Positions 854 to 42,317 of a stretch of DNA of 64,000 nt are shown piece by piece (the stretch's first letter is position 1; each line of letters starts with the position of its first letter). Source of the DNA: Candidatus Parcubacteria bacterium (lineage in GTDB: Bacteria; Patescibacteriota; Patescibacteriia; Patescibacteriales; UBA12075); NCBI GenBank assembly GCA_963814275.1, contig CAWFCE010000002.1, positions 554,537 through 618,536 of the forward strand. The letters run 5' to 3'. Below the pieces are notes generated by a model. The model was not told the DNA's origin. It saw only the letters and a list, made by a program, of their open reading frames with translations, and ran no database searches. Made by a program: the position numbers and the translations under genes.

Positions 854-3800
854 ATGCTTAATCCAATAAAAACAACGGATTTTGACGCTATTAAACTGAA
901 GCTAGCGTCGCCCGACAATATTAGCTCCTGGTCGCATGGCGAGGTTACCCGGCCGGAAACCATTAATTACCGGACGCAAAAACCGGAGAAAGAAGGCCTT
1001 TTTTGCGAGCGCATATTCGGTCCTTCCAAGGACTGGGAATGTTATTGCGGAAAATATAAGAAGATCCGTTATAAGGGCATTGTCTGCGACAAATGCGGCG
1101 TTGAGGTTACGCGGTCGATCGTCCGCCGTGAACGGATGGGCCACATCCGGCTGGAATCACCCTGCACGCATATTTGGTTTTTACGCGGTTTGTCTTCCAA
1201 GGTCGGTCTGATCCTCGACCTCTCGATGCAGGCGCTGGAGAAAGTGGTGTATTTCGCCAGTTTTATCATTACTGATGTAAATGAAGATCTTAAGCAAGCC
1301 ACGATCGACCAGATCAAAAATGAGTATAAACAAAAAAAGAAATCTATCGATAATGATTTTTTGCGCCAAACGAACGAAATCAAGAACCGTAAGGGAAAAT
1401 TGATCGAGCAGGGCAAAAGCCGGCCCGAGGCGGACGATGAAATCAATGGTGAAATCGAATCTCTGGCGAAGGTCAAGGAAGAGAAGCTGGCCAATCTGCA
1501 GAATGCTTTCGACCAGGCTCAAAAAGAATTGAAAGACTTGAAGCCTCTCTTGATCATATCGGAAAATACTTATCAAAATTTAAGCTTGAAATACGGCCAT
1601 ATATTCGAGGCCGGTATTGGCGCGGAAGCGGTGCGGAAGCTTCTGGAAAGGATCGATTTGGGAAAGTCCATTGAATTGCTTGAGCAGGAACTTCTGCAAG
1701 CGATCGATTCGAAACGGGACAAGCTCACGAGGCGCCTTAAACTGTTCAAAAGCTTGCTGGCGAATAACTTGCGCCCGGAATGGATGATTTTGACCGTGGT
1801 GCCGGTAATTCCGCCGGATCTGCGCCCGATGGTCGCCCTTGACGGGGGGCGTTTTGCCACCTCCGACCTCAATGATCTGTACCGTCGCGTGATCAATCGC
1901 AATAACCGTTTGCGGCAGCTGGTAGATCTGAACGCGCCCGAGGTCATATGCCGCAACGAAAAACGCATGCTGCAGGAAGCGGTTGATGCCCTGATTGATA
2001 ATTCCGCCCGGCACGGCAAAACCGTAATCGCGTCTACCGGGCAGAAGCGCATGCTTAAATCGTTGGCCGACTCGCTTAAAGGCAAGCAGGGCCGTTTTCG
2101 CCAGAATTTATTGGGCAAACGCATTGATTATTCCGGCCGTAGTGTCATCGTGGTTAACCCCAAGCTGAACCTTGACCAGTGCGGTCTGCCGAAAGTGATG
2201 GCCTTGGAACTGTTCAAGCCCTTTATTATCAGCAAATTAATAGATAAAGAAGTCGTGCATAATGTCCGCAGCGCATCCCGGTTTATCGAATCCGGAGCTG
2301 ACGTGGTATGGGATATACTGGAAGAGATCATCCAGGGCGCCTATGTTCTCCTGAACCGCGCGCCAACGCTCCATCGGCTCGGCATACAGGCTTTTAGGCC
2401 GATCCTGATAGAGGGCAAGGCAATCCAGATCCATCCGCTGGTTTGTACCGCTTTTAACGCTGACTTTGACGGCGACCAGATGGCGGTTCATGTCCCCTTA
2501 ACGGCGGAAGCGGTGTCAGAGGCGCGGGATATTATGTTGTCTTCCCGCAACCTCTTAAAACCGGCTACCGGGGATCCGGTAGTAGCGCCAAACCAGGATA
2601 TCGTCTGGGGCGCTTTCTATATCACCAATATGGCTGAGGGCAGCAAGAAAGACGAGGAATTAAAAAGCTTCGCCGATGAAAACGAGGCTCGTTTGGCGTA
2701 TGATACCGAGAATATCAAGCTTCATGATGCAATACGAGTCGTTTTGCCCGGACTGGGATTGGTCCGGACATCGGTTGGGCGCATTATTTTCAACAATATC
2801 TTGCCGAACAAACTGCGCTACGTGAATGAAGTTGTCGGCAAGAGCAAGCTGAAGAACCTGGTTAAGCAATGTTTTCAATATTACGGGCCGGAACGCACCG
2901 TACATTTCCTTGATGACCTGAAAGCCCGTAGTTTCGCCTATATAACCCGAAGCGGATTATCCTGGGGAATGGGCGATCTGCCGTCATTTCCCGAAAAAGA
3001 TGAAATGATCGACAATGCGCAGACGGAAGTCGAAAACATACAAGAACAATATGAGGAAGGCTTATTGACCGATAGCGAGCGTTATACCAAGGTCATCGAA
3101 GTCTGGAGCGGCGTAAAAGAGCGGGTAACAGACATATGCCGGAAAGGACTGCCCGTGGAAGGCCCGGTTTATTCGATGATCGAATCCGGCGCCCGCGGCA
3201 GCTGGGCCCAGCTGACCCAGATATTGGGAATGAAGGGTTTGGTTACATCTCCTTCCGGTGATATTATCGAGCTGCCGGTAAAAGGAAATTTCAAAAAAGG
3301 TTTCGGAGTGTTGGAATATTTCATTTCCACCCATGGCGTGAGAAAAGGGCTATCCGATACCGCTCTCCGTACCGCCAACGCCGGATACCTGACGCGCCGT
3401 TTGGTGGATGTGTCGCAGGACGTAATCATCAGCGATGAAGATTGCGGTGATGATGAAGGACTGCTTGCTACCAGCGCAGAAAGCCAGCAATCTGGAGTTG
3501 ATTTGCTTTCCCGTATAATCGGGCGTTATTTGGCGCAGGATCTGCTCAATAGCAAGGGCAAAGTGTTGGCCAAAAAGGGAGAGATCGTCGATATGGATTT
3601 GGCCGAGAAGCTGGAAGGCGAAGATATCACGGAAGCAAGGATACGCAGCGTATTGTCATGCAAACTGCATCGGGGAGTGTGCGTTAAGTGCTACGGCTGG
3701 GATCTGGGCCATAATCGGTCGGTTAAATTGGGTACCGCCGTAGGCATTATCGCCGCCCAATCGATCGGTGAGCCGGGAACGCAGCTTACCATGAGGACGT

Positions 3801-4816
3801 TCCATACCGGCGGTATCGCCGGCGTCGAAGATATTACCCAGGGTTTGCCCCGCGTTGAAGAAATATTCGAAGCCCGGCCGCCGAAACGGAAAGCGTTTAT
3901 CGCCGACGTGTCGGGAACTGTCAAGATCGAAACCGCCCAGCGTACCATTGAGGATGAAACCGGCAAGGTGGTCGTCAGCAATCCCCAAGTAAAGATCCTG
4001 AAAATATATTATACCGGCGCCGCCAGTAAAAAATATTATTTTGCGGACGTTAACAAGATGTTCAGTGATAAATTAAAAACGCAAAAAACGCCGAAATTAC
4101 TGGTTAAAGACGGGGAGAAGGTCAAAACCGGCAAGCCGCTGTTCTCCTTCGGACGGAAAAAAATACTGGCTGAGCAGGATGGCGTTATCGCCGTAACCGA
4201 AAAATACGTAAAGCTGCAGGGTGAAGCCGAACGAGTCAAAGAGTTTATCGTGCCGAAAGGTATGACCATAATCCATAACGAAGGGGATAAGGTGGAAAAG
4301 GGCGACCAATTGACTGATGGCAGTCTTGACTTACAGCAATTATTCAAATTGCGGGGCAAACTGGATACCCAAAAATACATCATCAAGGAAATCCAGAGCG
4401 TATATTCTTCCCAGGGCCAGCCATTGAATGACAAACACATCGAGATTGTCGCCAAACAAATGTTTTCCCGCTTTTTTATCACTGAATCCGGCGGTACCGA
4501 GCTCTTACCGGGCGAGATCGCGGAAAGCGCGATGTTCAACCGCGCCAACCTGGAAGCGGAAACAAACGGCAAGAAATCGGCCAAAGGCGAACGTTTGCTC
4601 CTGGGAATTACCAAAGCGTCGCTGACTACGGATAGCTTCCTGTCCGCCGCGTCGTTCCAGGAAACCGCCAGAGTATTGATCGAATCCGCGGTAAGCGGCA
4701 AAATCGATTATTTGGAGGGGCTTAAAGAGAATGTTATTATCGGACGCCTGATACCGGCCGGTACAGGATATTACGGCAAAAAAGAAAGAGCGGATTACAG
4801 CCAGGACAAAGGTTAA
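854..4816 (+). CDS. rpoC: DNA-directed RNA polymerase beta-prime subunit
   Basis: 1320-aa ORF with an N-terminal zinc-binding CYCGKYKKIRYKGIVCDKCGVEV and the catalytic NADFDGDQMAVHVPL motif. Position after rpoB is the canonical order. Confidence 0.98.
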   Translation: MLNPIKTTDFDAIKLKLASPDNISSWSHGEVTRPETINYRTQKPEKEGLFCERIFGPSKDWECYCGKYKKIRYKGIVCDKCGVEVTRSIVRRERMGHIRLESPCTHIWFLRGLSSKVGLILDLSMQALEKVVYFASFIITDVNEDLKQATIDQIKNEYKQKKKSIDNDFLRQTNEIKNRKGKLIEQGKSRPEADDEINGEIESLAKVKEEKLANLQNAFDQAQKELKDLKPLLIISENTYQNLSLKYGHIFEAGIGAEAVRKLLERIDLGKSIELLEQELLQAIDSKRDKLTRRLKLFKSLLANNLRPEWMILTVVPVIPPDLRPMVALDGGRFATSDLNDLYRRVINRNNRLRQLVDLNAPEVICRNEKRMLQEAVDALIDNSARHGKTVIASTGQKRMLKSLADSLKGKQGRFRQNLLGKRIDYSGRSVIVVNPKLNLDQCGLPKVMALELFKPFIISKLIDKEVVHNVRSASRFIESGADVVWDILEEIIQGAYVLLNRAPTLHRLGIQAFRPILIEGKAIQIHPLVCTAFNADFDGDQMAVHVPLTAEAVSEARDIMLSSRNLLKPATGDPVVAPNQDIVWGAFYITNMAEGSKKDEELKSFADENEARLAYDTENIKLHDAIRVVLPGLGLVRTSVGRIIFNNILPNKLRYVNEVVGKSKLKNLVKQCFQYYGPERTVHFLDDLKARSFAYITRSGLSWGMGDLPSFPEKDEMIDNAQTEVENIQEQYEEGLLTDSERYTKVIEVWSGVKERVTDICRKGLPVEGPVYSMIESGARGSWAQLTQILGMKGLVTSPSGDIIELPVKGNFKKGFGVLEYFISTHGVRKGLSDTALRTANAGYLTRRLVDVSQDVIISDEDCGDDEGLLATSAESQQSGVDLLSRIIGRYLAQDLLNSKGKVLAKKGEIVDMDLAEKLEGEDITEARIRSVLSCKLHRGVCVKCYGWDLGHNRSVKLGTAVGIIAAQSIGEPGTQLTMRTFHTGGIAGVEDITQGLPRVEEIFEARPPKRKAFIADVSGTVKIETAQRTIEDETGKVVVSNPQVKILKIYYTGAASKKYYFADVNKMFSDKLKTQKTPKLLVKDGEKVKTGKPLFSFGRKKILAEQDGVIAVTEKYVKLQGEAERVKEFIVPKGMTIIHNEGDKVEKGDQLTDGSLDLQQLFKLRGKLDTQKYIIKEIQSVYSSQGQPLNDKHIEIVAKQMFSRFFITESGGTELLPGEIAESAMFNRANLEAETNGKKSAKGERLLLGITKASLTTDSFLSAASFQETARVLIESAVSGKIDYLEGLKENVIIGRLIPAGTGYYGKKERADYSQDKG

Positions 4817-4846
4817 TACCAGCTAGATTAGCTTTTGCGATATATA

Positions 4847-4885
4847 ATAAGACCGCCCCGGTTATACCGGGGCGGTCTTATTTGC
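4847..4885. terminator. Bidirectional rho-independent terminator between convergent rpoC and porB
   Basis: 15-bp perfect stem ATAAGACCGCCCCGG / CCGGGGCGGTCTTAT with loop TTATA, followed by TTATTTG on the + strand. Confidence 0.8.
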
Positions 4886-4898
4886 GAGGAATTTCTTA

Positions 4899-5858
4899 TT
4901 ACAGTCCGTAACGTTTGATGTTGCTATCGGCGATTTTTTGAATAAGCGCCAGCTGTTCCTTGCCGGCCGGGGTTTTGAAAAGATGGGAGAAACGCCCTTG
5001 CATTTCCAGGTAATCCTGGACTTTTGGCGTCGGTTTCGGCACGGGCAGGGCCTTTGACAGGGTGCCGTCGACGTACTCGAGTACGGGATAGAGGCCGGTT
5101 TGGGCTGCCAAGCGGGCTGCCTGCAAAGTTTGGTCCGGACGGATTCGCCAGCCGGGAACGCAAGGGGCCAATATCTGGATATACGCCGGGCCTTTGGCCG
5201 CAACTGCTTTGGCTACTTTTTGCTTAATGTCTTCGATATAGCCGGCAGTCGTTTGCGCCACATAGGGCAAGCCATGGGCCAAGGCGATGGCTATTATATC
5301 CTTTTTCCGCTGATGCGAGCCAATCGCGTCGATTGTTTGGCCGCTTCCGGAAGGAGTGGTGGTGGTATTCGCTCCCCAGGGAGTCGAGCCACTGGCTTGC
5401 ATACCGGTGTTGGAATAAGCCTCGTTGTCGTAGCAAATATACAGGATCGGTTCACCTCTTTCCCACATCCCGCTTATCAGCCCAAACCCGATATCGAAGG
5501 TGCTGCCGTCGCCGCCCTGGACAACGACTTTGATTTTATTGTCTTTCTTTTTCTGTTTGAGCGCGGCATAGACGCCCGAAGCGACCGCGGCGGCGTTCTC
5601 GAACAGGGAATGGATCCACGGTACGCCCCAAGCGCTTTGCGGATAGGGCGAAGTAGTTACTTCCAGACAGCCGGTGGCATTGGCGATTATTACGTTTTCG
5701 CCCAAAGCTCCGGAAACAGCCCGGGCAGCCAGCGATTGCCCGCAACCGGCGCACCCCCGATGTCCCGGGGAAAACAGCGGTTTTTTCGTCTGGGTTTTTA
5801 CCGCAGCGCTTGCTGTGTTGGTTTTAGTCGGCATAGTAGTAAGTGATATCGCGAACAC
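4899..5858 (-). CDS. porB: Pyruvate/2-oxoacid:ferredoxin oxidoreductase beta (TPP-binding) subunit
   Basis: 319-aa ORF with motifs GHRGCAGCG, GGDGSTFDIGF and CYDNEAYSNTG typical of PorB. An alternative start (MPTKTN) lies at 5834. Confidence 0.92.
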   Translation of the reverse strand: MFAISLTTMPTKTNTASAAVKTQTKKPLFSPGHRGCAGCGQSLAARAVSGALGENVIIANATGCLEVTTSPYPQSAWGVPWIHSLFENAAAVASGVYAALKQKKKDNKIKVVVQGGDGSTFDIGFGLISGMWERGEPILYICYDNEAYSNTGMQASGSTPWGANTTTTPSGSGQTIDAIGSHQRKKDIIAIALAHGLPYVAQTTAGYIEDIKQKVAKAVAAKGPAYIQILAPCVPGWRIRPDQTLQAARLAAQTGLYPVLEYVDGTLSKALPVPKPTPKVQDYLEMQGRFSHLFKTPAGKEQLALIQKIADSNIKRYGL

Positions 5859-5976
5859 TTTGTTTAAGCTGGCCGCAATCGGGCGGCCGGGAAGGAAAGT
5901 GTTCGAAATATTACGGAATTATTATTTGATTAAAATATTATCGTTTGTCTACATAAGGGAGATAAAAACCGAAGCA

Positions 5977-6186
5977 TCAGTTGGCCGGAGCGATGCTTTT
6001 CAAATCTTTCAAATTCTGGATTTTTTCGAATTGGCCGATGAATTTCGAAGCATCCAAAATTTCCACCAGGATCGGTTTTCCCGCCGAAGATACATGGATT
6101 ATGAAATTACCGACCTCGCGAACGTGGTCGATCTTGCCTTTGGCGATTTCCCAGCAAATTATATTGGCCTCTGGATCGTAGAGCAT
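5977..6186 (-). CDS. DUF2283-like small protein (putative antitoxin partner)
   Basis: 69 aa. MLYDPEANIICWEI...PILVEILDASKF matches the YDPEAD...GIEILDAS pattern of DUF2283. Lies 29 nt downstream of a DUF4258-like gene. Confidence 0.75.
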   Translation of the reverse strand: MLYDPEANIICWEIAKGKIDHVREVGNFIIHVSSAGKPILVEILDASKFIGQFEKIQNLKDLKSIAPAN

Positions 6187-6215
6187 ATTGATTATAGTAA
6201 TGTTAAAATATCTGA

Positions 6216-6434
6216 TTAAGGCTTTACCGGAAAAAAAGTGATGATTTTTATAATACCGTGGTCTTTCCGATAAACCACTTTAATGCCGTCTTTTTTTGCC
6301 GCCAAATAATTACCTTTCTTTTTTATTTGTTCGGGGACAGTAACGGCTTCCTCGATCTGCTCGCGGGTCAAATAGACTTTATATTTATGCAGAATATCGA
6401 ATTTTTCTTCCGCGTATTTGGTAAAGTGGATCAT
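6216..6434 (-). CDS. DUF4258-like small protein (putative toxin partner)
   Basis: 72 aa. FTKYAEEKF...REQIEEAVTVPEQI...KVVYRKDHGIIKIITFFP fits the DUF4258 pattern (F-T-x-H-A-x-E ... VVY ... VIT-x-YP). Confidence 0.7.
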   Translation of the reverse strand: MIHFTKYAEEKFDILHKYKVYLTREQIEEAVTVPEQIKKKGNYLAAKKDGIKVVYRKDHGIIKIITFFPVKP

Positions 6435-6474
6435 AGATTATATATGTTAGCATTATATTCATGAACGGTAAAAT

Positions 6475-9297
6475 TTACGGGCAGGTCGCATGGCATTCGT
6501 CGGGAAGCCAGGGTATATCGCAGCATTTAAGTCCGTTGCAGCAGGGCGTAAAGGTGCACCAGCCGCCTTCGTCCTGTTCGCAGGGCAGGCAATCGCCATC
6601 CGAGCATACCCTTTGGTCGCCGCAGGACAGGCCGTCGTTACCGGGAAGGGAACAGTTGACTGAAGGCGCCGACTGGCAATACCCCGCATAGCAGGTCAGG
6701 CCGGAGAAGCTGCAGCAGTCGATTCCATAGCCGCAGGCAGACCATTCGTTCTTGGCGCAAAGGTCGCAGGACAAGGTGCCGCTCCGGTCATAGCACATTT
6801 TGGCGTAATTCGGGTCACTGTACGAACCGCAGGAATCGCCGGCCGATTTGCTGTCGCATTCGGTTGCGTCCGAACAGATAGTGTCCATTGCCGGATCGGT
6901 ACAGGATAAGCCTTTAAAGAATTGCTGGTAAGGATAGCTGAAAAGATTTTCCGGGCAGGTAAATTCCGTTTTTGAGCTGCAACTGACCGAACCGGCATAT
7001 TGTGTAACCGCGCAGCAGCCGCTTATATCGCAATATCCTCCCAAACAGTCGCTTCCGCCGGCACAATCGCTCGCATCATCGCAGGTGTCGCCCAGTTCGC
7101 CGCCGGCGCATACGCCGGTGCTCTCACGGCATAATCCGGACGAACAATCGCCACCTGTACCGCAGGGACTGCCGATTGCGCCATCGGTACATAATTTTCC
7201 CTTGGTCGCGGTATCGACGCAAACCAAATCTTCCGCACAGATCAATTCCGTGTCATTGCAGGGCGTATCGTTAGTCTGGTAACCGGGGCAGACGGCATAG
7301 CATTTATTGACCAATAAAGATACGTGGCAGCATTCCAAATCCTGGCAGCACGGGGTAAGATTGCACCAATCGCCTTCGGTGTTTTCACAGGTTTTGCATA
7401 CTCCGCCCGCGCATACCTTCTTTCCGATATCCGCGCTACAGGATTTTTTGTCATTGTCTGGATCGGAGCAGTCTATGGTGGGTGCGGTGTCGCAAATACT
7501 GCCGGTATTGCAGGACAAGTCGGCATAAGCACAGCAATCTATGTCCCCCAAACAGGGGTTGCCGGCTTCTTTCCAGCAAAAGCCGCAGGTTTTTTGGCCG
7601 CTCCGCTCATAGCACATTTTGCCGTAAACCGGATCGACAAACGACGGTTCGCATTGGTCGCCGGCCGATTTTGAAACGCATTCCGGGGAGGTGCAGTCTG
7701 CCACGTCGTTGCATGCCAAATCGCGATAGTATAGCTGTACCAAGGGATCGCAAAGCGTTTCCTTGATATCATTCTGGCAGTTCTTGCTGCCATCCCAGAG
7801 ATCACGGACACAACAACCGGTGGTATCGCATTTATTGTCCAGACAATCCAGTTCGAATTGGCAATCATCCACGTTGTCGCAGCTGTCGCCCAGCTTGCCC
7901 TCGGAACATAAGCCGATAGTCTCCCGGCAAATTAGCCCGGCTTGGCACTGGCTGTCGCTGCCGCAAGGGCTTCCCGCTTGGCCGTCGGTGCAGAATTGGC
8001 CGTTTATCGTAGTGACGCAGGTCAGCTTATCCCCGCACAAAAGGTCGGTGGTATTGCATGTTTCGCCGTTTTTCCTGCCGCCGGGGCAGACGGCGTAGCA
8101 TTTGTCGAGCGCCCAGGGGATATCACAGCAAGTTATCCCTTCGCAACAAGGGGTAAGAGTGCACCAATCGCCTTCATCCTTTTCGCAAATTTTACAGCTG
8201 CCCTTCGAACAGACTTTGTCTTCGCCCCCCAGCCCGGTGCCGCAGAACAGTTTGTCATTAGCCGGATCAGCACAATCTTTTTCGGGAGCATCACTGCAGA
8301 CGCCAAAGCTGCATGACAATCCGGCATAAGCGCAGCAGGCGTAATCATTCGTACAAGGATTGCCTTTTGTGTCCACGCAAGGCCCGCAGGTTAATATGCC
8401 GCTTTTTTCATAGCACATATTTGCGCTGTCGGGATTTTCGACAGTGGGTCCGCATTGGTCACCTTTTGACTTGGCGGAACAAAGGGATGACGATTTACAG
8501 TCCGGTAAATCAGCCGACAGCTTGCCTTCTTTCCATATTTGGGCGGCAATCGCCCCGTTGATTATTGTCGGACAATTATCCTGGGTCGTATCGGCGCAGG
8601 TAACAGCTAGAGTTATTGGATTGGTCTTGACACAGGCGTATTTCAGGTTTCCTTCCGCATCAGCCGTTAAACACCGGTCAGCGCCGTATTTGACGGATCC
8701 GTCGCCGCCCCACTCGCCGCTTACGGTTTCACATTTTTTCTGGGTATACAGGTTATAGGATGAATTTTTAACGATACAACACCCTAAATTTTCGATTTTA
8801 TCGATCTTAAGCGGTTCGAATACGGTCAGGTTGGGGTTAACGAAATAAAGAAGCGTATATGATCCCAGGGCAAGGACCAGTCCGGTGAGAGCTGAAGCGA
8901 GCCAGCTTTTGGCGGTATCGATTCGGCTTTTATTGCCGGCGGCGGTCGCCCAGAGCAAGCCGCCGATCATCATCGCGACCGTGGCCAGGATACCGACCGT
9001 ACCGACCCCGTATTTGTATATCGTCTGGATATAGCGCCCCATGGTTTGGTCGTCGATCAGGATACCGCAGTTCTTGTTTTCGGGGTCGCATTTGGCGAAT
9101 TCGCCTCCGATCGTTACCTGAGGACGGAATAATATCCCAGTTTTTTCATCTTCTGCACGGCAAATTCCTGTCAAAAATAAATTGGCGAGAATAGCCAAAA
9201 AAAAGACAAAAATTAAATTACATTTTATAAATAATTTGAATGCGGAAAATTGCATTATTGTATATAATATTACTGCTTTCTTTTTCTGCTGTCTCAA
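6475..9297 (-). CDS. Secreted T4SS-pilin-like (TrbC/VirB2-type two-helix) N-module fused to a ~770-aa Cys-rich repeat region
   Basis: 940-aa ORF with a signal/TM segment, an FRPQVTIG motif and a hydrophobic hairpin GTVGILATVAMMIGGLLWATAAGN...LTGLVLALGSYTLLYFVNPNL. About 110 Cys follow (manual count) in ~2.5 repeats of ~270 aa. The start may instead be the internal Met at 9255. Confidence 0.85.
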   Translation of the reverse strand: MRQQKKKAVILYTIMQFSAFKLFIKCNLIFVFFLAILANLFLTGICRAEDEKTGILFRPQVTIGGEFAKCDPENKNCGILIDDQTMGRYIQTIYKYGVGTVGILATVAMMIGGLLWATAAGNKSRIDTAKSWLASALTGLVLALGSYTLLYFVNPNLTVFEPLKIDKIENLGCCIVKNSSYNLYTQKKCETVSGEWGGDGSVKYGADRCLTADAEGNLKYACVKTNPITLAVTCADTTQDNCPTIINGAIAAQIWKEGKLSADLPDCKSSSLCSAKSKGDQCGPTVENPDSANMCYEKSGILTCGPCVDTKGNPCTNDYACCAYAGLSCSFGVCSDAPEKDCADPANDKLFCGTGLGGEDKVCSKGSCKICEKDEGDWCTLTPCCEGITCCDIPWALDKCYAVCPGGRKNGETCNTTDLLCGDKLTCVTTINGQFCTDGQAGSPCGSDSQCQAGLICRETIGLCSEGKLGDSCDNVDDCQFELDCLDNKCDTTGCCVRDLWDGSKNCQNDIKETLCDPLVQLYYRDLACNDVADCTSPECVSKSAGDQCEPSFVDPVYGKMCYERSGQKTCGFCWKEAGNPCLGDIDCCAYADLSCNTGSICDTAPTIDCSDPDNDKKSCSADIGKKVCAGGVCKTCENTEGDWCNLTPCCQDLECCHVSLLVNKCYAVCPGYQTNDTPCNDTELICAEDLVCVDTATKGKLCTDGAIGSPCGTGGDCSSGLCRESTGVCAGGELGDTCDDASDCAGGSDCLGGYCDISGCCAVTQYAGSVSCSSKTEFTCPENLFSYPYQQFFKGLSCTDPAMDTICSDATECDSKSAGDSCGSYSDPNYAKMCYDRSGTLSCDLCAKNEWSACGYGIDCCSFSGLTCYAGYCQSAPSVNCSLPGNDGLSCGDQRVCSDGDCLPCEQDEGGWCTFTPCCNGLKCCDIPWLPDECHATCP

Positions 9298-9372
9298 ACC
9301 GTAATTAATAGAAAATCAATGTGTATATAAAAAGATTATCAAATAAAATCACCATGATTTAAATGTTTGAAA

Positions 9373-10281
9373 TTATTGCGGGCTGACATGAAAATGGGGA
9401 GCAGTTATATTTGTGTTCACTATGCATTTCGTTACTCCCTCCGCGATCAAAGGAGCGCAGCCGTCCGCGACATTGGTTTCGTATAATACGTTTAGTTTTT
9501 GGTCCATTAGCTTATTGTATATTATTCTCAGTTCCTGCGGCGCAGGTTTAGCCGTAGTGGTATTGACATCGGCGCAGGTTCCGATCGCGTGGCACTGGCT
9601 GGTGTGGTTGGGGGTTGTCGGCGGCCAGCCTTCGGTGAGTACGATGGTGTAAGCAGATAGCTTTATATCGTTTGATGCGGCTATTAATTTATCCGCCAAT
9701 ACCGCATTCAATTTCGTGCCGACGCCATCCTTGACTTTGAGGCCTAAATTTAAAAAATTGACTTCCGGAATGGTCATGCAATCGTAACAATCGCCGCATT
9801 TGTTCTGCGGGTAATCCTTGGGACAGCCTTCGGCTGTATAGGGATTGATTGTGCCGGTGTTGATAGATTTGAAGCTTACCAGGGAAGGATTGACGAAATA
9901 CAGGATCGTGTAGGACGACAGGGCCAGAAGCAGGCCGGTAAAGGCGGAATTGATCCAGCTTTGCGCCGTAGAGACCCGGTTTTGGTTGCCGGCGGCAGTC
10001 GCCCAGAGCAAGCCGCCGATCATCAGGGCGATCGTGGCCAGGATGCCGACTGTGCCGATCGCGTATTTGTAGATTTCGCTTATATACGTGCCCAGAGTGG
10101 AGGGATCGACCGGAATGCCGCAGGCCTTGTCGCGCGGATCGCATTTCGTATTAACGAAAATATTACCGATCGTGACTTGAGGCTGGAAGCGTATGGCATC
10201 TTCGGCTTTTACCGGTCCGGCCACGGTAAATCCGGAAATTAGGACACAGCCGGAAATTGCCAGCCAGCCAGCCAGGGTCAT
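9373..10281 (-). CDS. Secreted T4SS-pilin-like N-module fused to a possible M15/LAS-type zinc peptidase-like domain
   Basis: 302 aa. The N-module is nearly identical to its neighbours (IRFQPQVTIG, GTVGILATIALMIGGLLWATAAGN, YFVNPSL). The C-terminal part has LTEGW...SQCHAIGTCAD...APHFH, resembling the H-x6-D ... H zinc ligand pattern of M15/LAS cell-wall peptidases. Confidence 0.8.
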   Translation of the reverse strand: MTLAGWLAISGCVLISGFTVAGPVKAEDAIRFQPQVTIGNIFVNTKCDPRDKACGIPVDPSTLGTYISEIYKYAIGTVGILATIALMIGGLLWATAAGNQNRVSTAQSWINSAFTGLLLALSSYTILYFVNPSLVSFKSINTGTINPYTAEGCPKDYPQNKCGDCYDCMTIPEVNFLNLGLKVKDGVGTKLNAVLADKLIAASNDIKLSAYTIVLTEGWPPTTPNHTSQCHAIGTCADVNTTTAKPAPQELRIIYNKLMDQKLNVLYETNVADGCAPLIAEGVTKCIVNTNITAPHFHVSPQ

Positions 10282-10369
10282 GATTTTGATTATTTTTTCA
10301 CTTTTTATCCAAAAGATATTATTTAGAAAAACAGTAAAATGAAAAAAACATTACTATTTTTCGTTAAAT

Positions 10370-11233
10370 TTATTCGCAGCTATTGCTTTTACAGCTTTTT
10401 GAACAGCATTTGAAATATTCACCTGGAGTGCATGTTTTGCCCTTGGTAAAACAGGCGACGCATAGGGGTTGGGGCAGGCCGCCATTGCACCAGCCGGTAT
10501 TATCGAGGCAAGGCATACCAAAGGGCGCGCCCACGCATTCCTGGACGTTTACCGAAGCTTGAGAAGCGCAGGCATATTCCGTATTACCGTTACTACTCTT
10601 TACGCTGCGGCAATATTTATCTTTACTGCATTTCGCTACGTTGTTCGGGCAGGAATAAATCAAGGTTCCTTCGGAATTTTCATTAACGTCAAAATTTACC
10701 GGGCCCATTTGGGGGTCGCAACAGGTAAAATCGTGTTGGCCCGGATCGGTAATTTCAAGCGTTTTAAGTTCAATCAGTTGGGGATTGACTATATAGAGGA
10801 GAGAATAGGACGAAAGGGCCAGGATCAGGCCGGTAACGGCGCCGAAGATCCATTGTTTCGCATTGTCGACCCGGCCGGTGTTGCCGGCGGCGGTCGCCCA
10901 GAGCAAACCGCCGAACATCAGGATCAGGGTGGACAGTATACCGACCGTACCAATGGCAAAAGTGTATACCGCGCTAATATATTCCCCCATGGTTTTGGGC
11001 GTGATCGACAGTTTCCAGTCATTGGGTTCCATCGATAAGCTGTGCTGGAAGGTGGCTGAGCCGGGGATGCTTATCTGGGGGTTGAACTTAATGCCGGATT
11101 CGGATTTAAAACCGGAATCAATATTGTCTTCTGCTTTGGTTACGGCTGGGCACAGTAAAAAGATGCCGGCAGATAACAGACAGAACGTCGAGATCAAGCC
11201 GATTCGTAAATAGGGGATGCGCAATTGGCTCAT
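10370..11233 (-). CDS. Secreted T4SS-pilin-like N-module fused to a Cys-rich tail ending in a 10-Cys knot-like segment
   Basis: 287 aa with IKFNPQISIP, GTVGILSTLILMFGGLLWATAAGN and YIVNPQL. The last 55 aa contain 10 Cys (CVGAPFGMPC...CCSKSCKSNSCE). The start lies 9 nt after the porA stop. Confidence 0.85.
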   Translation of the reverse strand: MSQLRIPYLRIGLISTFCLLSAGIFLLCPAVTKAEDNIDSGFKSESGIKFNPQISIPGSATFQHSLSMEPNDWKLSITPKTMGEYISAVYTFAIGTVGILSTLILMFGGLLWATAAGNTGRVDNAKQWIFGAVTGLILALSSYSLLYIVNPQLIELKTLEITDPGQHDFTCCDPQMGPVNFDVNENSEGTLIYSCPNNVAKCSKDKYCRSVKSSNGNTEYACASQASVNVQECVGAPFGMPCLDNTGWCNGGLPQPLCVACFTKGKTCTPGEYFKCCSKSCKSNSCE

Positions 11234-11242
11234 ATTGATAGT

Positions 11243-12424
11243 TTATCCGATAAATTCCGTTTCGTTCTTTGCTTTATCGGTATGTTTAACGATTTTTTTG
11301 ATCATTTCTTTGGTGATATCGCGTCCGCCCAAACCGACGATAAAGCCCCGGATTTTGGTCTTAATCCTGTTTTTGGCGGCCGCTTTGACATCCAGAGCAA
11401 GGGGGCCGTCGGTCGCGCCCAAGGAAATGGCCTTTTCCAGCACCGCCGCCTGTTTGGCGCCAATAAGGATTTTTATTATCTCCTCCGCCGGAAATGGCCG
11501 ATAGCATTTGATCTTGAGGACACCGACCGAACCGGTCAATTTGCCCCGGTTGATCTCATCGACCGCGTCTTTGATAGTGCCGACAAGCGAACCCATGGCG
11601 ATCAGTACCGTTTTCGGATGGGCCGGCCCGTAGTATTCGATCAGTCCGTTATTTACGGTTGCTTGCTTTTCGGTTTTTTTGACCGCATTCGGCATATCAT
11701 CCCGAAGCTGTTCATAAGCCTCGAAGATCATGTTGGCCGCCTTATTCATATCATTGTGCAATTCCTGGCGTATTTCCATATAGTACGCGGGCGGCGCAAA
11801 GGCGCCGAAAGTTACCGGGTTGGCCGGGTCCAGAAATTCTCCTTTGGCCGGCTTGTAAGTAGGCAGGAAACGTTTGACCTCGGCGGCTGACGGCACATAT
11901 ACGTCTTCGTAGGTATGGGTCAGGACGAAACCGTCGATACAGACCATAGCCGGCAATTTCGACCGTTCCGCGACCAGGTAGGCGAGTAGATGCTGCTCGA
12001 CGGCTTCCTGGTGGTTCTCGGCATATAGCTGGATCCAGCCGGCGTCGCGGACAGTCATCGTATCCTGATGGTCGTTCCAGATAGTGATCGGGGCGGAGAT
12101 GCCGCGGTTGGCTACCGTCATTACTACCGGCAGGCGCATGCCGGCGATATTGAATATGACTTCCGTCATCAGAAGCAGGCCCTGGGAGCTGGTGGCGGTA
12201 TAGGTACGGACGCCGGCGGCGCTGGCGCCGGCCACGATCGAGGCGGCGGCAAATTCACTTTCCGCCCGAACATATTCGTAGTTAGCCGCACCGTCAGCCT
12301 TGAGCTTAGCCAGATCCTCGACGATATGGGTTTGCGGTGTGATCGGATAAGCCGAGACGACTTGTGGTTTGATATTATTGATCAATTGCGCGATGGCCTG
12401 CGATCCTTCTAATATTTGTCGCAT
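11243..12424 (-). CDS. porA: Pyruvate/2-oxoacid:ferredoxin oxidoreductase alpha subunit
   Basis: 393 aa. The N-terminus MRQILEGSQAIAQ...VVSAYPITPQTHIVE is typical of PorA. Follows porD. Confidence 0.93.
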   Translation of the reverse strand: MRQILEGSQAIAQLINNIKPQVVSAYPITPQTHIVEDLAKLKADGAANYEYVRAESEFAAASIVAGASAAGVRTYTATSSQGLLLMTEVIFNIAGMRLPVVMTVANRGISAPITIWNDHQDTMTVRDAGWIQLYAENHQEAVEQHLLAYLVAERSKLPAMVCIDGFVLTHTYEDVYVPSAAEVKRFLPTYKPAKGEFLDPANPVTFGAFAPPAYYMEIRQELHNDMNKAANMIFEAYEQLRDDMPNAVKKTEKQATVNNGLIEYYGPAHPKTVLIAMGSLVGTIKDAVDEINRGKLTGSVGVLKIKCYRPFPAEEIIKILIGAKQAAVLEKAISLGATDGPLALDVKAAAKNRIKTKIRGFIVGLGGRDITKEMIKKIVKHTDKAKNETEFIG

Positions 12425-12503
12425 ATATTCTTATTGGCCTTATCAGTCATTGCCACCGGATATCCGGTTTGGCAGGAGTGAATAAGGGCGGTTATTTATT
12501 AGA

Positions 12504-12800
12504 TTATTTGGCTTCAAGCTCCATTTTGATGCACTTGACCGGGCACTCGGTGGCGCACAGTCCGCACCCCTTGCAATAGTCATAATCGGTTTGCGGCCGC
12601 GGTTTGCCGTCCCGGTCGATCATTCGGATGGCAGATTCCGGGCAGATTTTGGCGCAGGTGCCGCAACCGATGCATTTGTCCAGATCGGTCCGCGGGATAA
12701 ATGTCCGCCAGCCGCCGGTTTTGTTATTGATCGTTGATCCTGGTTGTACGGTAAGTTCCATATATGATTGATTGAATGGAACAGAACAAGTTTTTGGCAC
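12504..12800 (-). CDS. porD: Pyruvate:ferredoxin oxidoreductase delta subunit (2x[4Fe-4S] ferredoxin)
   Basis: 98 aa with two CxxCxxCxxxCP clusters (CIGCGTCAKICP, CKGCGLCATECP). Lies between porG and porA. Confidence 0.92.
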   Translation of the reverse strand: MPKTCSVPFNQSYMELTVQPGSTINNKTGGWRTFIPRTDLDKCIGCGTCAKICPESAIRMIDRDGKPRPQTDYDYCKGCGLCATECPVKCIKMELEAK

Positions 12801-12847
12801 TTTGCAAAAGAGGCTGTATCTGCTCCATTGTGCTTATTTAATTTATA

Positions 12848-13384
12848 TTATAGGCCTTGGTAACGGCATTGATGTTCTTGGTAACCAGGTCCTTGTTTTT
12901 GCCGGCGAATTTTTGTTCGATCGCCTTTTTCAGGGAACTCAGGGTTACCAAGTCCGGTCGCCTTGGCAAAGGCGCCGAGGATCACGGTATTTACGATATT
13001 CCTGCCGATTTCCTCAAGGGCGATCTTGGTCGCATCGATAACGAAGAGATTTTCCTTGGGCACGGACAAGCCGATTTCCGCTTTTGTCTTGCTCGAATTC
13101 ACGATTACGAGCGTATTCGGTTTGGCGCCGTGAATCACGTCTACGGTGCCGATGAGCGAGGAATCCTGGATAATGAGCACATCCGGCTCATAAACGTGTT
13201 CCCGCGTACGGATCGGTTTTTCGTCGATGCGGGCAAAAGCCTCGATCGGAGCGCCGGTCCTCTCGACACCGAACGAAGGAAAAGCCTGGGCAAAACGGCC
13301 GTCATTAAAGGCGGCGATGGCAGTCAGTTCGGCTGCGGTAACGACGCCCTGTCCTCCCCGGCCATGAAAACGAAGTTGATGCAT
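12848..13384 (-). CDS. porG: Pyruvate:ferredoxin oxidoreductase gamma subunit, with an apparent 1-nt frameshift near 12950 (alternative-frame stop at 12838)
   Basis: 178-aa ORF starting MHQLRFHGRGGQGVVTAAE... (PorG-like). Its last ~34 aa look like junk. The neighbouring frame reads DLVTLSSLKKAIEQKFAGKNKDLVTKNINAVTKAYNIN* and ends at 12838-12840. Confidence 0.85.
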   Translation of the reverse strand: MHQLRFHGRGGQGVVTAAELTAIAAFNDGRFAQAFPSFGVERTGAPIEAFARIDEKPIRTREHVYEPDVLIIQDSSLIGTVDVIHGAKPNTLVIVNSSKTKAEIGLSVPKENLFVIDATKIALEEIGRNIVNTVILGAFAKATGLGNPEFPEKGDRTKIRRQKQGPGYQEHQCRYQGL

Positions 13385-13395
13385 AGAATGTTTAT

Positions 13396-13423
13396 AATTA
13401 GTAATTTGTAATTAGTAATTTGT
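13396..13423. repeat. Heptamer-periodic tract
   Basis: AATTAGT AATTTGT AATTAGT AATTTGT, 12 nt upstream of the porG start codon (minus strand). Followed by hairpin AGCGCGA-GGAATGG-TCGCGCT at 13425-13445. Confidence 0.8.
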
Positions 13424-13475
13424 AAGCGCGAGGAATGGTCGCGCTTTTATTTGCTGGATTGTAGGATATTGGTCG

Positions 13476-14168
13476 CTACCGGGGGGAGGATTGCAGCATT
13501 TCATCGATTATGTTCAGGAAGTAAGTACGCGGAACATCACCGCTCAGGCGACGGCCGTTAATGAACCAGGTTGGGGTTCCGGTGATTCCCAGCGCCTCGG
13601 CATCGGCGGCATCGGCGCTGATAAGGGGCAGGTAGGTTTGCGCGTCAAGGCAATCGATCAGTTCATTACGATCGACGCCGATCCGTTCGGCCAAAGCGAC
13701 AATATCTTCGCGGCTGGTAATTCCCTGGTAGAGGTAAAGGGCATCATGCATTTCCCAGAATTTGCCCTGCGCGCCGGCGCAATGGGCGGCCAGCGCCAAA
13801 TCGACCGAGTTTTCGGTAATCACCGGATAATTGCGGAATATAATTTTGACCCGGTCGCTGTATTTGGTCCCGATTTCCCGGATCGTAGAAAATGTCCGCG
13901 CGCAGATCGGGCAGCCGAAATCGGCGAATTCCACGATCGTAATTAGGGGGTCGCTCGGTCCGGTTGAAAAGTTTTGCCCCGAACCGAGTATCCTCGGATC
14001 GATTGCCACTGTAGTTTCGACTTTCGTTTGCGAAGAGCCAATTGTCGAGCGTAAATATGAAACCGTATAAACCGCTATTATTATCCCCAAAATCAATAGG
14101 ACAAATAATATCAGGCCGATAATTTTTACCCACCAGCGGCTAAGGAATGGCTTCGGTTGGTTCTCCAT
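13476..14168 (-). CDS. Membrane-anchored DsbA-like thiol:disulfide oxidoreductase (thioredoxin fold)
   Basis: 230 aa with an N-terminal TM helix and the active-site motif FADFGCPICA (CxxC). Also has the DsbA-family-like sequence GTPTWFINGRR. Confidence 0.85.
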   Translation of the reverse strand: MENQPKPFLSRWWVKIIGLILFVLLILGIIIAVYTVSYLRSTIGSSQTKVETTVAIDPRILGSGQNFSTGPSDPLITIVEFADFGCPICARTFSTIREIGTKYSDRVKIIFRNYPVITENSVDLALAAHCAGAQGKFWEMHDALYLYQGITSREDIVALAERIGVDRNELIDCLDAQTYLPLISADAADAEALGITGTPTWFINGRRLSGDVPRTYFLNIIDEMLQSSPR

Positions 14169-27074: not shown

Positions 27075-30000
27075 ATGTTCAAAAGCGATCCCCAAGCTCA
27101 TAAATCCAAAAGTCGATCTAAGTTTTTTATAACTGTTAAATTAGTTTTGCAATTATTTATAGCGGTTTTTTTTATTATATTATTTACGCATAACAGCTAT
27201 GTATCGGCCGATGAGATGGGCGGTTTAAGTGGTTATGAAGATTTAGCGTCAACCATGAACAGTATACAAGTTTTTGATTCTACCCTTAAATCAACGGTTC
27301 AGGGCATCGATATCAATAGAAGAATAGAAGAGGCAAAAAAGGCGGCCGAACAGCTTTCCGGATCGAGATTATTCCAGGCCACCCTGGGTCGGGCGTTAAA
27401 TACAATCGCTTATGATACTGCCACCTGGCTGGGGTCGGGCGGCGAGGGTCAGAAACCGCTTTTCATCACCGAAGGCTGGGGCGAGTATTTGTCCAATGTG
27501 GCGGATAATGCCGCCGGCGGCTTTATCGACGAAGTGAATAAGAATTGGGAAAACTTCGATATTTGCGAACCGGATCTTGCGACCAAGATAGTTATCAGCA
27601 GAGGATTGATCAGCCAGGCTAAGCCGGAAAAGCCGTCTTGTACGTTTACGGAAATGAAAAAGAATTGGGAAGAAGAGCTCAAAAATCCGAATTTCCTGTT
27701 CCGTTTCCAGGATATGTTCAATCCGCAATCGAATGATCTGGGAGTAGCCCTGACACTTCAGACCAAATTGCTGGAAGAAAAGGAAAAAGAACAGAATCAG
27801 GCCGAATTGCAGTTAAGCAGTAAAGGCGAATGGATCGACTTGCGCAATGTGGCCGGCTATCTGGAGGGAACCCCTGACTGGGCCAGACTGCAATCCGAAG
27901 ATATACTTAAGGGCAGTGTCGAGAATATCGGCCAGTGGACCGGTTCGATCCTGATCGATGCCGCCAACATTTTCCTCAACCAGCTGGCGATCACCGCGAT
28001 CGATACCCTGATGAGAAATCTGGCCGGGGGCAAATCCTATTCTTCTTCCGGAGGCAATTCCGGCGTTTACAATTATGAAGCCGGTCCGGTGACCGGCGGG
28101 ATCGAGGGCGCCAAGGACAGCTACCGCAAACTGATCGAGCCGCGTTTCAATGAACGGGGTGATTACAATATATTGACCGAACTCTCAGTCTGTCCCAACC
28201 CGACCAAGGCCGGTCCGACCAATTGCGTCCTGACCGACCGATTCCGCCAGGCGGTCGAAAACAAGCTGACCGTGGCTGAAGCGATAAGCGGCGGCTATCT
28301 CAACGCGAACGGAATCTTCGGCTTCACGGCCGACGGGCTGGAACCGCCCTACACGGAAGGCTATCCGTATCGGACGATCTTGATATTGAGAAAATTCCGC
28401 ATCGTGCCGGTGGGCTGGGAGGCAGCCGCCCAGGCAATCAAAGACGGCAAGACGGGAATCGACCGCGGCGCCGTAAGTCTCGGCGACCTCATGGCTTGTT
28501 TCGATCCCGGAGATGAATATACCGGTAATTCCGAGGGCTGGTGCGTCGGCTTGGTCGACCCCAACTGGGTCCTGAAGGCGCCGCAGAATTACTGCAAGCG
28601 CGAGGGGCCGGGCCCGGTCGTAGTCAGTGAACAGGTTATCGGCCAGGGCGAGGGCAGCCAGCTGGCGGTCAGCCGGAATACCAATTATTGCGCCGATGAA
28701 CAGTCCTGCATCCAGGAAAACCGCGACGGTTCCTGCAAGCTTTACGGCTATTGTTCCGAAGAACGGCGCACCTGGAATTTCGGCGATAATTATTGCGAAC
28801 CATTGTATAATACCTGCCAGACTTTCCGCGGGCCGGAGGGACAGTCCGTTTCTTATCTGGAGAATACGCTCGATTACGGAATATGCTCGCTGGACAACGC
28901 CGGGTGCGCGGGGTATTGCCGCGATTATAATGCCGCCACTGCCGACTTCTCCTGCTCTACGACTACCGGGCGGATGCTGGTTGCCGACCATGATATCGAA
29001 GAATGCGATAGCGATGTCGAAGGCTGCCACGAGTTCATCAGGACCAAAGCGGGATTGGGCGCGAATTTGCTTAAAAACGCCAGCTTCGAAAATATCGCCT
29101 TGACCGATACGATCGACGACGGCATTACCGATACTTTTGACGTATGGGGACCGTCCGGGCTGGCAGTCAGCGGCGGTTTCCAGAGCTCGGTCGGCCTGCA
29201 GCTGGCGGGCGGTTTATCCACTACTACCCGGGTCGGGCCGAACGGTTTTTCTCTGGCCGGGCAGATATTGACTTTGTCGCTGATGGCCAAGGATTGCAGC
29301 GAAGGCGACGATATCCGGCTGGGTAACGGCTCTGGTATTTCCAGCACCACAATAACGGCGGGTGACAGCTGGCGATCCTACCAGGTGTCCCATGATTTTC
29401 CGCCCAGTACCGCCGACAACCAGGTCAATATTGCGGTTACGGTCAGCGGCAGCTGCACGATAGACGCGATCAAGCTGGAATTCGGCGGGCAAGCGACGGC
29501 GTGGAGCGATTATCGGGAAGAGGGACTGGTCTATGAAAAACTGGCGCCGGCCTATCTGGGCTGCACCGGTAACAGCACCAGCCCCGAATGCCAGCCATTC
29601 GTGAGGGAATGCGGCCCGAATTGGTTCGGCTGCCAGCTGTTCACCTCCGGTACCGACGGGCTGTCGGTACCCGCCCAGGTGACGAATATGGATTATTGCC
29701 CCGAACAATGCGTCGGTTATGATACTTATATAATGAGCGACAGTAATTTCGATTCCCAGTCTTCGGCTAATTTCATTCCTGCTACTGCCCGCGGGTGCAG
29801 CGCCCAAACGGCCGGTTGCGATGAGTTCACCAATCTGGACAAGATCGGCGAAGGAGCGGAGGCGCGGGAATACTACAGCGACCTTAAGCAATGCACCGAC
29901 CCGAAAGCCCCCCTTGCCGGTACGACCTGCGAGGAGTTCTACACCTGGGAAGGCAGCGCCGAAACCGGCTATCAGCTGCGGGTTTTCCAGCTGGCCGCGA

Positions 30001-38166: not shown

Positions 38167-38175
38167 TTTATATCC

Positions 38176-39318: not shown

Positions 39319-39320
39319 TA

Positions 39321-39415
39321 CGCGAATGTATAAATCCACTACAAATCTACAAATTACAGATCATATAAAAAAATTAAATAATTTGTAGATTTATACTAAA
39401 ATTTGTACATTCGCG
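39321..39415. repeat. Long imperfect palindrome in the intergenic spacer
   Basis: Left arm CGCGAATGTATAAATCCACTACAAATCTACAAATTA (39321-39356) and right arm TAATTTGTAGATTTATACTAAAATTTGTACATTCGCG (39379-39415). The outer 10 bp and inner 14 bp are perfect. Confidence 0.8.
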
Positions 39416-39457
39416 TGAATTAATTGATTTTAGCGAAATTAAGTTTTTAGTCGAAGT

Positions 39458-41604: not shown

Positions 41605-41611
41605 CACCAAT

Positions 41612-42301: not shown

Positions 42302-42317
42302 TGAATTAAAATAATTT

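Follow-up and report, generated by a model that had tools for sequence, protein, structure and literature searches.

Pilin-like genes between porA and porB in Patescibacteria: a probably inherited composite por operon, locally enlarged in one genome

Background

Why should the genes for the alpha and beta subunits of a central-metabolism enzyme, which sit side by side in characterised four-subunit operons, lie 5,384 nt apart with five other genes between them? The question is raised by the por cluster (porG, porD, porA and porB, encoding a putative pyruvate:ferredoxin oxidoreductase, POR) in a 64,000-nt stretch of DNA from Candidatus Parcubacteria bacterium (GenBank assembly GCA_963814275.1, contig CAWFCE010000002.1, positions 554,537 to 618,536), hereafter the window. 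An earlier sequence-only reading of this DNA proposed that an accessory cassette of pilin fusions and a toxin-antitoxin (TA)-like pair had inserted into the por operon and was probably co-transcribed with it. Our analysis favours, with a probability of about 0.65, an inherited composite operon, dsbA-porG-porD-porA-[VirB2-like surface protein gene(s)]-porB, in a Falkowbacteria/Parcubacteria-like lineage of Patescibacteria, enlarged in this genome by local duplication and probably forming one transcription unit. Judged by sequence comparison, the window genome is ordinary among its relatives: the split appears clade-wide and vertically inherited, and unusual for POR operons generally.

Results

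The por cluster and its interruption

On the minus strand, the gene order is dsbA, porG, porD, porA, pil1, pil2, pil3, orf72, the DUF2283 gene and porB (coordinates in Table 1). All four subunit genes are present and co-oriented in the order gamma-delta-alpha-beta, and five co-oriented genes separate alpha from beta, exactly as first read from the sequence. The gap contains three fusions of a VirB2-like (PF18895) membrane anchor, followed by a gene of predicted RelE-fold/DUF4258-like type and the DUF2283 gene. Subunits were assigned by Pfam and NCBIfam (domains POR, Fer4, POR_N plus PFOR_II, and TPP_enzyme_C); the top NCBIfam models were PorA, PorB, PorC and PorD, with every score below the model cut-off, and as Por equivalogs these below-cut-off models make pyruvate the putative substrate. 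The PorB translation contains GGDGSTFDIG...DNEAYSNTG, corresponding to the thiamine pyrophosphate (TPP) motif GDG...N, as well as CAGCG with the CxGC cysteines, and the PorD translation contains two CxxCxxCxxxCP motifs, CIGCGTCAKICP and CKGCGLCATECP. Compared with the canonical porGDAB/porCDAB operons of archaea, Thermotoga and Helicobacter, the cluster matches in its four subunits, in their order and orientation and in its intact cofactor motifs, but alpha and beta are split by unrelated genes and dsbA heads the cluster.

A separate Logan assembly (L001, 10,266 bp) has the same porG-to-rpoC arrangement, with one base different in 10,266. At 12950, window porG has one T more than L001, to which it is otherwise identical, and its last 33 codons are frameshifted as a result; porG of L001 has the canonical 181 aa, and that frame would stop at window position 12838. 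Comparison of the two sequences indicates that the extra base is probably a sequencing or assembly indel rather than a true frameshift. Independent gene calls on L001 also place the likely starts of porD at ATG 12761 (85 aa) and of porB at ATG 5834 (311 aa).

A pilin-like gene follows porA across the Patescibacteria clade

For the comparison, species-representative genomes supplied the 80 best PorA loci, and seven more were added for the closest metagenomic homologues; one of the seven, L083, duplicates L082 (loci are cited by L number where needed). The window PorA is patescibacterial, its closest named homologues coming from Parcubacteria, Falkowbacteria and "Patescibacteria group" bacteria. 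Of the 32 informative Patescibacteria loci (the window among them), 29 had a PF18895 gene as the next gene after porA, and porB lay beyond the pilin gene in all 22 of these that reached far enough. The exceptions were L009 and the sister pair L020 and L023, in which porA and porB are adjacent. A glycogen synthase-like gene stands right after porA in L009 (10001-12700), with neither porB nor a pilin gene within 10 kb; from this sequence, the por genes of L009 may be truly dispersed or porB may have been lost.

Fifty-three loci were from outside Patescibacteria (Omnitrophota, Planctomycetota, Deltaproteobacteria, methanogens and others). There, porA and porB were adjacent in 49 of 51 informative loci, which bears out the earlier premise that adjacency is the norm; one other locus had a 2.1-kb gap, one was without porB within 10 kb, and two ended too early. 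In a neighbour-joining tree of PorA, Patescibacteria formed one clade and the pilin state reached its basal branches L028 and L024, for which the simplest reading would be one ancient gain of the pilin gene with rare loss. The sequence-only reading had held that por genes routinely dispersed in close relatives would make the split unremarkable. Relatives proved not to be dispersed but to share the same specific interruption, so the split is unremarkable in a formal sense only.

Linkage extends upstream as well. All Patescibacteria loci with upstream sequence except L018 and L026 have a dsbA gene immediately ahead of porG and co-oriented with it, often 0-2 nt away; such a gene was never seen at porG in the sampled non-Patescibacteria loci. 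In L026 (7567-13134), dsbA-porG-porD is inverted relative to porA-pilin-porB-pilin, which breaks the gamma/delta-alpha link and leaves the porA-pilin-porB block intact. The genes dsbA-porG-porD are likewise inverted with respect to porA in L018 (5824-9444), the contig of which ends about 200 nt after porA.

Spacing in the relatives is very tight. Across L012-L027, intergenic distances were -4 nt for porA-pilin, 2-15 nt for pilin-porB, -4 to 5 nt for porB to a following pilin gene, and 0-2 nt for dsbA-porG. Junctions read directly in L015 show the porA stop overlapping the pilin start (...tATGAaa...), a pilin-porB junction of TAAtttATG, and the porB stop overlapping the start of a second pilin gene (...ttATGAaa...). 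Stop/start overlaps of the ATGA kind are typical of translational coupling. Because they leave no room for a promoter or terminator, the pilin-like genes are true operon members in these relatives. Many relatives have a second PF18895 gene just after porB, and their porA-porB gap measures 0.9-3.8 kb versus 5.4 kb in the window.

Probable inheritance and growth of the slot in the window's subclade

The subclade of the window includes L082, L084-L088, L005 and L008 (PorA 59-78% identical), and seven other loci were counted. Six of these seven have the order porA, a single pilin-like gene, an orf72 homologue of 71-72 aa, a DUF2283 gene, porB and convergent rpoC; L082, the seventh, also has the orf72 homologue together with a DUF2283-like open reading frame (ORF), and its contig ends inside porB. 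The small pair is as conserved as the Por subunits (same-slot identities of 54-72% for orf72 and 61-77% for DUF2283), the pilin anchor domain being only 40-58% identical. About 1.5 kb of the window's insert is therefore inherited, and pil2 plus pil3 (~3.9 kb) are its only window-specific part. The three anchors are tandem and divergent (50-61% identical among pil1-3), those of pil2 and pil3 being mutually closest (61% aa and 74% DNA identity), and from these identities pil2 and pil3 look like products of local duplication of the anchor domain. An independent pilin duplication, with two copies 81% identical, was found in L084.

Composition does not set the insert as a whole apart. The earlier proposal had suggested a comparison of k-mer and GC composition, and the result spoke against a recent insertion: the tetranucleotide L1 distance of the insert to the window was 0.162, compared with 0.157 +/- 0.031 for random equal-size blocks. 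GC at third codon positions (GC3) was 0.58-0.61, like the rest of the window, and only orf72 was AT-richer (GC 0.37). No boundary repeats or att-like sites were found at 5859 and 11242, and the Pfam scan of the locus returned no integrase or transposase domains. The hallmarks of a genomic island (deviant composition, mobility genes, flanking repeats, absence from relatives) were accordingly not seen. The original interpretation is thus supported in part: the operon is truly split by co-oriented, closely spaced genes, and their co-transcription is plausible. An inserted cassette is not supported for the core, which is clade-wide, native in composition and without flanking repeats; lineage-specific are pil2 and pil3 alone.

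Small genes of selfish type were also noticed in por spacers of relatives: a GIY-YIG gene in L084 (11312-11680), HigB/HigA-like pairs in L085 (11244-11746) and L082 (12024-12532), and PDDEXK_3 and 23S_rRNA_IVP genes between porD and porA in L088 (6449-6856) and L087 (6529-6897). From their distribution, the intercistronic gaps of por seem to be recurrent landing sites.

The pilin-like proteins

All three proteins share an N-terminal signal peptide ending in (K/R)A directly before ED, followed by a conserved F-x-P-Q-(I/V) motif. Hydropathy then gives two hydrophobic helices and a variable C-terminal domain, and the AlphaFold2 (AF2) model of pil2 shows a helical hairpin (helices 60-95 and 100-130 at a pLDDT of 78-91; mean pLDDT 63.5), so that by hydropathy and AF2 the proteins have the signal peptide and two-helix hairpin of VirB2/TrbC-like pilins. 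PF18895 (T4SS_pilin, gathering score 26.6 bits) is assigned to pil1 in the source database, and por-embedded PF18895 genes in relatives exceed the cut-off, at 36.9, 38.9, 32.6 and 28.3 bits. The C-terminal domains span ~140-770 aa, so these are not small pilin-domain-only proteins, and a pilus role of pil1-3 is putative, deduced from sequence. The outward-facing topology of VirB2 is the basis for placing the C-terminal domains, which by this analogy should face outward; such an orientation would agree with their richness in cysteine and with a DsbA encoded in the same cluster. The pilin-like proteins contain neither CxxCH nor Fe-S motifs, and a hidden Markov model (HMM) of the clade's pilin domain detected no further pilin-domain ORF in the window.

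The product of pil1 has hydrophobic segments at residues 8-34, 86-117 and 128-149 and 18 Cys, with a CC motif preceding a Cys-rich C-terminal domain. Its gene, starting 9 nt past the porA stop, occupies the post-porA pilin position of the relatives (pilX type), and its closest match is the L082 pilin (43% identity over 70% of its length); a word-indexed protein database yielded 4 matches, too few for a useful alignment. Like pil1, most porA-proximal relatives have a CC dipeptide just after helix two, mostly with 8-28 further cysteines.

The pil2 protein is of the type (pilY) that lies after porB in relatives. Six aligned pil2-type C-termini contain invariant H, D and HxH columns, and a profile built from them picks up the Sonic hedgehog N-domain, which has a LAS/DD-peptidase fold, at E = 0.0017. 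The pil2 C-terminus itself had no Pfam or NCBIfam match, and a Foldseek search of the model against PDB returned only generic helical hairpins, the C-terminal domain being modelled at a pLDDT of 35-81. A Hedgehog/DD-peptidase (LAS zinc-peptidase)-like domain in pil2 is therefore a borderline assignment. In relatives, pilY proteins bear 3D and NlpC/P60 domains or, in L022, a VanY-like motif (identified by eye), and SLT or 3D domains occur in further database homologues of the pil2 anchor; from these, pilY-type proteins are predicted to be membrane-anchored or pilus-borne wall hydrolases, again with pil2 itself as a borderline member. Next to known LAS peptidases and VirB1-type wall hydrolases, pil2 keeps the H...D...HxH pattern, subject to that borderline match, but the domain is fused to a VirB2-like anchor and is not a free enzyme.

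For pil3, the L001 gene call favours a start at ATG 9255, giving 926 aa. The anchor and CC motif are followed by 2.5 tandem modules of ~270 aa with 40 Cys (6475-8481), detected as direct repeats and ~49% identical in amino acids and ~61% in DNA, and the 940 residues of the full ORF contain 114 Cys in total. The Cys-rich regions of both pil1 and pil3 had no known domain in Pfam or NCBIfam.

Patescibacteria are known to have divergent arrays of VirB2-like pilins, usually near virB4, and for Southlakia these are essential (PMC12102498, PMC12857230). The genes reported here resemble the arrays of Southlakia epibionticum and Nanosynbacter lyticus TM7x in matching the same PF18895 family, although just below its gathering score, and in having tandem divergent paralogues and a signal peptide plus hairpin, and the window genome likewise encodes a VirB4-type type IV secretion system (T4SS). 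They differ in that they lie in a central-metabolism operon, 31 kb from virB4, and encode 287-940 aa as opposed to pilins of ~100 aa; the published account of the arrays makes no mention of POR.

The orf72 and DUF2283 pair

The single-sequence AF2 model of orf72 (pLDDT 77.6) had almost exclusively RelE, YoeB, ParE and YafQ toxins as its top Foldseek matches (TM 0.55-0.71, E 7e-3 to 0.2). Although orf72 itself had no Pfam match and its sequence profile no meaningful match in PDB, DUF4258 was matched by 7 of 46 homologues (best 1.7e-7), single homologues matching BrnT or PBECR; 50 representative clusters among 1.84 billion proteins make up this small family. The DUF2283 gene is adjacent and co-oriented, starting 29 nt after orf72, as a partner gene would be. 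With its two small, co-oriented neighbouring genes and a spacer of 29 nt, the pair is like RelE/ParE type II TA modules and DUF4258 + DUF2283 pairs, and "TA-like pair" is a fair label for it, with toxicity putative on the present sequence and model evidence. Unlike typical TA modules, which are patchy and mobile, orf72/DUF2283 is fixed in position with 54-77% identity across genomes, and such a fixed position together with slow evolution is unusual for a toxin-antitoxin module.

Spacers, hairpins and transcription signals

Spacers from the porA stop onward measure 9, 88, 75, 40 and 29 nt, the very lengths first read, and at a GC of 0.17-0.23 they are as AT-rich as had been said (por-internal spacers, 0.33-0.42). 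A sixth spacer, from the DUF2283 gene to porB, measures 118 nt, or 142 nt with the porB start at ATG 5834, and the pil2-pil3 spacer becomes 117 nt if pil3 starts at ATG 9255. A minus-strand scan found no terminator-like site (hairpin plus U-tract) in any spacer of the por cluster, in agreement with the sequence-only reading, and fold analysis showed the spacers within the insert to be unstructured.

Two hairpins had been noted in the sequence-only reading, a strong one after porB and a weak one at 5871-5888 that was thought to be the only one before it. Both exist. The strong hairpin, between porB and rpoC, probably marks the end of the transcription unit, and the weak one (6 bp, 5871-5888) forms the top of a longer stem that spans 5843-5914. 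The latter is not the sole hairpin, as comparably stable folds occur in the porG-porD (z = -2.7), porD-porA (z = -3.65) and dsbA-porG (z = -4.2) spacers. Because equally stable stem-loops sit between the other por genes, the porB-leader hairpin is not evidence of termination; such stem-loops are a general feature of the por operon and not a termination sign. Those of the porD/porA (12425-12503) and porG/porD (12762-12847) spacers may be intercistronic stability or processing elements. A conserved regulatory RNA in the porB leader was also considered and dropped: aligned DUF2283-porB leaders of six genomes shared no conserved element, the 5843-5914 stem-loop was not kept, and an Rfam scan of the region found no riboswitch or other RNA family.

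Upstream of porG, the dsbA-porG spacer contains 2.5 copies of a 14-nt tandem repeat (TTTGTAATTAGTAA, plus strand) at 13391-13425, between a GC hairpin and the porG start, and could harbour a porG promoter or operator. The region-wide count of promoter-like sites was 17, against a shuffled expectation of 15.1 +/- 4.5, and was not above chance. Because counts are at the shuffled expectation, single matches of the promoter and terminator scans carry little weight. No Shine-Dalgarno-like motifs were visible upstream of ~39 start codons in the whole window, and A/T-rich sequence precedes nearly every start codon, for which reason AT-richness is poor promoter evidence in this genome. Leaderless, gene-by-gene transcription from -10-like boxes was considered too and was not decisive, AT-rich upstream sequence being general and the spacing inconsistent.

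Discussion

The arrangement is best explained, in our view, by a composite operon that was inherited as such. In the common ancestor of this PorA clade, a PF18895 gene would already have separated porA from porB, and in the window genome the slot would have grown from ~1.5 kb to 5.4 kb through anchor-domain duplication yielding pil2 and pil3. A single transcript may start at a promoter ahead of dsbA or porG and end at the 4846-4882 hairpin, such that POR and surface proteins would be made together; POR subunits would assemble after translation, and separation of their genes would then cost nothing. Signal peptides would direct the export of the pilin-like products and the two-helix VirB2-like hairpin would anchor them. 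The co-encoded DsbA would oxidise their outward Cys-rich or hydrolase domains, and the products would probably work at the cell surface with the T4SS encoded 31 kb away. A slot between two essential co-transcribed genes could act as both trap and safe harbour, offering strong expression and making clean deletion hard. This idea fits the build-up of paralogues and of small selfish genes (HigBA, GIY-YIG, PDDEXK_3, 23S_rRNA_IVP) in por spacers of relatives.

A number of points weigh against this account. None of the three window pil proteins quite reaches the PF18895 gathering score, their size far exceeds that of genuine VirB2 pilins, their genes do not adjoin virB4, and the DD-peptidase assignment of pil2 is borderline (E = 0.0017, no Pfam match, low-confidence model). 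The trap and safe-harbour idea is one that we infer. Sampling consisted of the 80 best PorA loci, to which breadth across Patescibacteria is limited. Co-transcription in the window genome is likely, by spacing and by analogy with relatives. Compared with theirs, the window spacers are longer (75-142 nt, GC 0.17-0.39) and very AT-rich, two minimal promoter-like matches lie in the pil1-pil2 and pil2-pil3 spacers (10345-10318 and 9363-9335), and a stable stem-loop in a structured 142-nt leader precedes porB. These last features are what the main rival explanation would draw on, according to which the neighbourhood is conserved without being a single operon, the pilin-like genes, the small pair and porB each having their own promoters in AT-rich spacers and being expressed independently. 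The inversion in L026 adds to its case, since porA-pilin-porB must have a separate promoter there, and L018 is apparently inverted too. We nevertheless hold it to be unlikely: the porA-pil1 gap is only 9 nt, no spacer contains a hairpin with a U-tract, promoter-like sites are at chance frequency, the AT-rich sequence that precedes nearly all starts in the absence of Shine-Dalgarno motifs is hence not promoter-specific, and stop and start codons overlap in relatives.

Three other explanations fare worse than a composite operon. Arrival of the five genes as a mobile cassette of pilin fusions plus a TA module, entering an intact porGDAB of this genome or a recent ancestor, would agree with the variable slot contents among close relatives (HigBA, GIY-YIG and extra pilins are present in some and absent from others), with the restriction of pil2 and pil3 to this genome, with the lower GC of orf72 (0.37) and with the typical mobility of toxin-antitoxin modules. 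It is nonetheless highly improbable and largely refuted for the core, as the slot holds one pilin, orf72 and DUF2283 in relatives with PorA identities of only 59-78% and a pilin gene throughout the clade, tetranucleotide and GC3 composition is native, integrases, transposases and flanking direct or inverted repeats were not found, and orf72 and DUF2283 evolve at housekeeping rates. We give equally little credence to a functional partnership in which the pilin-like proteins and DsbA are POR accessories, serving as membrane tether or redox partner; the conserved interleaved order, the POR/pilin start-stop overlaps and a dsbA-porG linkage that persists even in L020 and L023, which lack the pilin, would all be expected of it, but the Cys-rich and hydrolase domains follow the second transmembrane helix and are therefore predicted to be extracellular, the inter-helix loop has few residues, CxxCH and Fe-S motifs are missing from the proteins, POR works without such partners in every other lineage (and porA-porB are adjacent in L020 and L023), and the pilins diverge fast, at 40-58% in their best-conserved domain versus 59-78% for PorA. 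Finally, an assembly artefact that misjoined 5.4 kb into the por operon is practically discounted. The genome is metagenome-derived and the window has at least one probable indel error (12950), yet mis-assembly is ruled out by the match to L001, in which the whole 10.3-kb region is reproduced with one base different, and the same kind of interruption occurs in 28 other genomes.

Searches of the literature on PF18895/VirB2, POR and DUF2283/DUF4258 found no published description of a POR-pilin linkage, and the architecture appears to be an undescribed variant. Where the textbook POR operon is compact, a whole clade of ultra-small cells keeps genes for secreted, fast-evolving putative surface proteins between alpha and beta, and for annotation this means that porA-porB adjacency is unusable as a rule in Patescibacteria. 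The only VirB2-like genes in the window are the three of the por operon, beside DsbA, which suggests a disulfide-dependent surface module with wall-hydrolase heads, and we hypothesise that expression of the surface apparatus and of POR is locked together. The por operon also looks like a natural example of an essential operon serving as a safe harbour. Going further, the interleaving of dsbA, POR and VirB2-like surface or wall-hydrolase genes, kept with translational coupling throughout a clade of Patescibacteria, might itself have been selected, hard-wiring a host-contact/T4SS surface apparatus to pyruvate oxidation in host-dependent cells; we regard this as a rather long shot. If true, it would be a new regulatory coupling of central metabolism with an episymbiotic attachment system, and in a stronger version the conserved RelE-fold/DUF2283 pair may have been co-opted for the processing or tuning of polycistronic por mRNA.

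Genomic context in the window

Features of the por locus and of the T4SS core are listed in Table 1.

Table 1 Coordinates of the por locus and other features in the window
Feature	Position	Strand	Evidence or remarks
rpoC, convergent with porB	854-4816	+	
17-bp perfect hairpin between convergent porB and rpoC	4846-4882	.	-33.1 kcal/mol, z = -6.3
porB (beta, TPP-binding)	4899-5858	-	TPP_enzyme_C 5e-22; PorB 7e-100
porB-leader stem-loop	5843-5914	-	inverted repeat; -30.2 kcal/mol, z = -3.6
DUF2283 protein, putative antitoxin partner, 69 aa	5977-6186	-	PF10049 26.0 bits vs 23-bit cut-off
orf72, predicted RelE/ParE-fold DUF4258-related toxin-like, 72 aa	6216-6434	-	AF2 + Foldseek, DUF4258 matches of homologues
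pil3, 940-aa ORF	6475-9297	-	PF18895 21.3 bits; clade HMM 1.8e-42
pil2, 302 aa	9373-10281	-	PF18895 23.7 bits
pil1, 287 aa	10370-11233	-	PF18895 25.8 bits; clade HMM 1.5e-43
porA (alpha)	11243-12424	-	POR_N 4e-72, PFOR_II 2e-23; PorA_Arch 4e-134
porD (delta, 2x[4Fe-4S] ferredoxin-like)	12504-12800	-	Fer4 families; PorD_Arch 1.8e-29
porG (gamma)	12848-13384	-	POR domain 2.7e-31; NCBIfam gamma-subunit models cover residues 1-145 only
dsbA-porG spacer	13385-13475	-	8-bp GC hairpin 13424-13446, without U-tract on this strand; tandem repeat
dsbA-like membrane-anchored thiol-disulfide oxidoreductase, cluster head	13476-14168	-	Thioredoxin_4 2.6e-26, DSBA 2.9e-17
T4SS core, PrgI/VirB3-like	41092-41604	+	
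T4SS core, TraC-like fragment	41612-42301	+	
T4SS core, VirB4-like ATPase	42318-44252	+	
Second DsbA paralogue	45134-45931	+	

The T4SS core as a whole (41092-44252) is 31 kb from the por-embedded pilin-like genes, so the adjacency to T4SS genes that would be looked for in pilins is replaced here by that distance to the VirB4-like gene. Three ORFs of 802, 380 and 528 aa upstream of the core (35758-41044) are without Pfam match and may be further T4SS parts. A giant ORF of 2,691 aa (27075-35150, plus strand) has a weak CBM_4_9 carbohydrate-binding domain as its sole Pfam match, and a similar giant gene was found near the por locus in L085.

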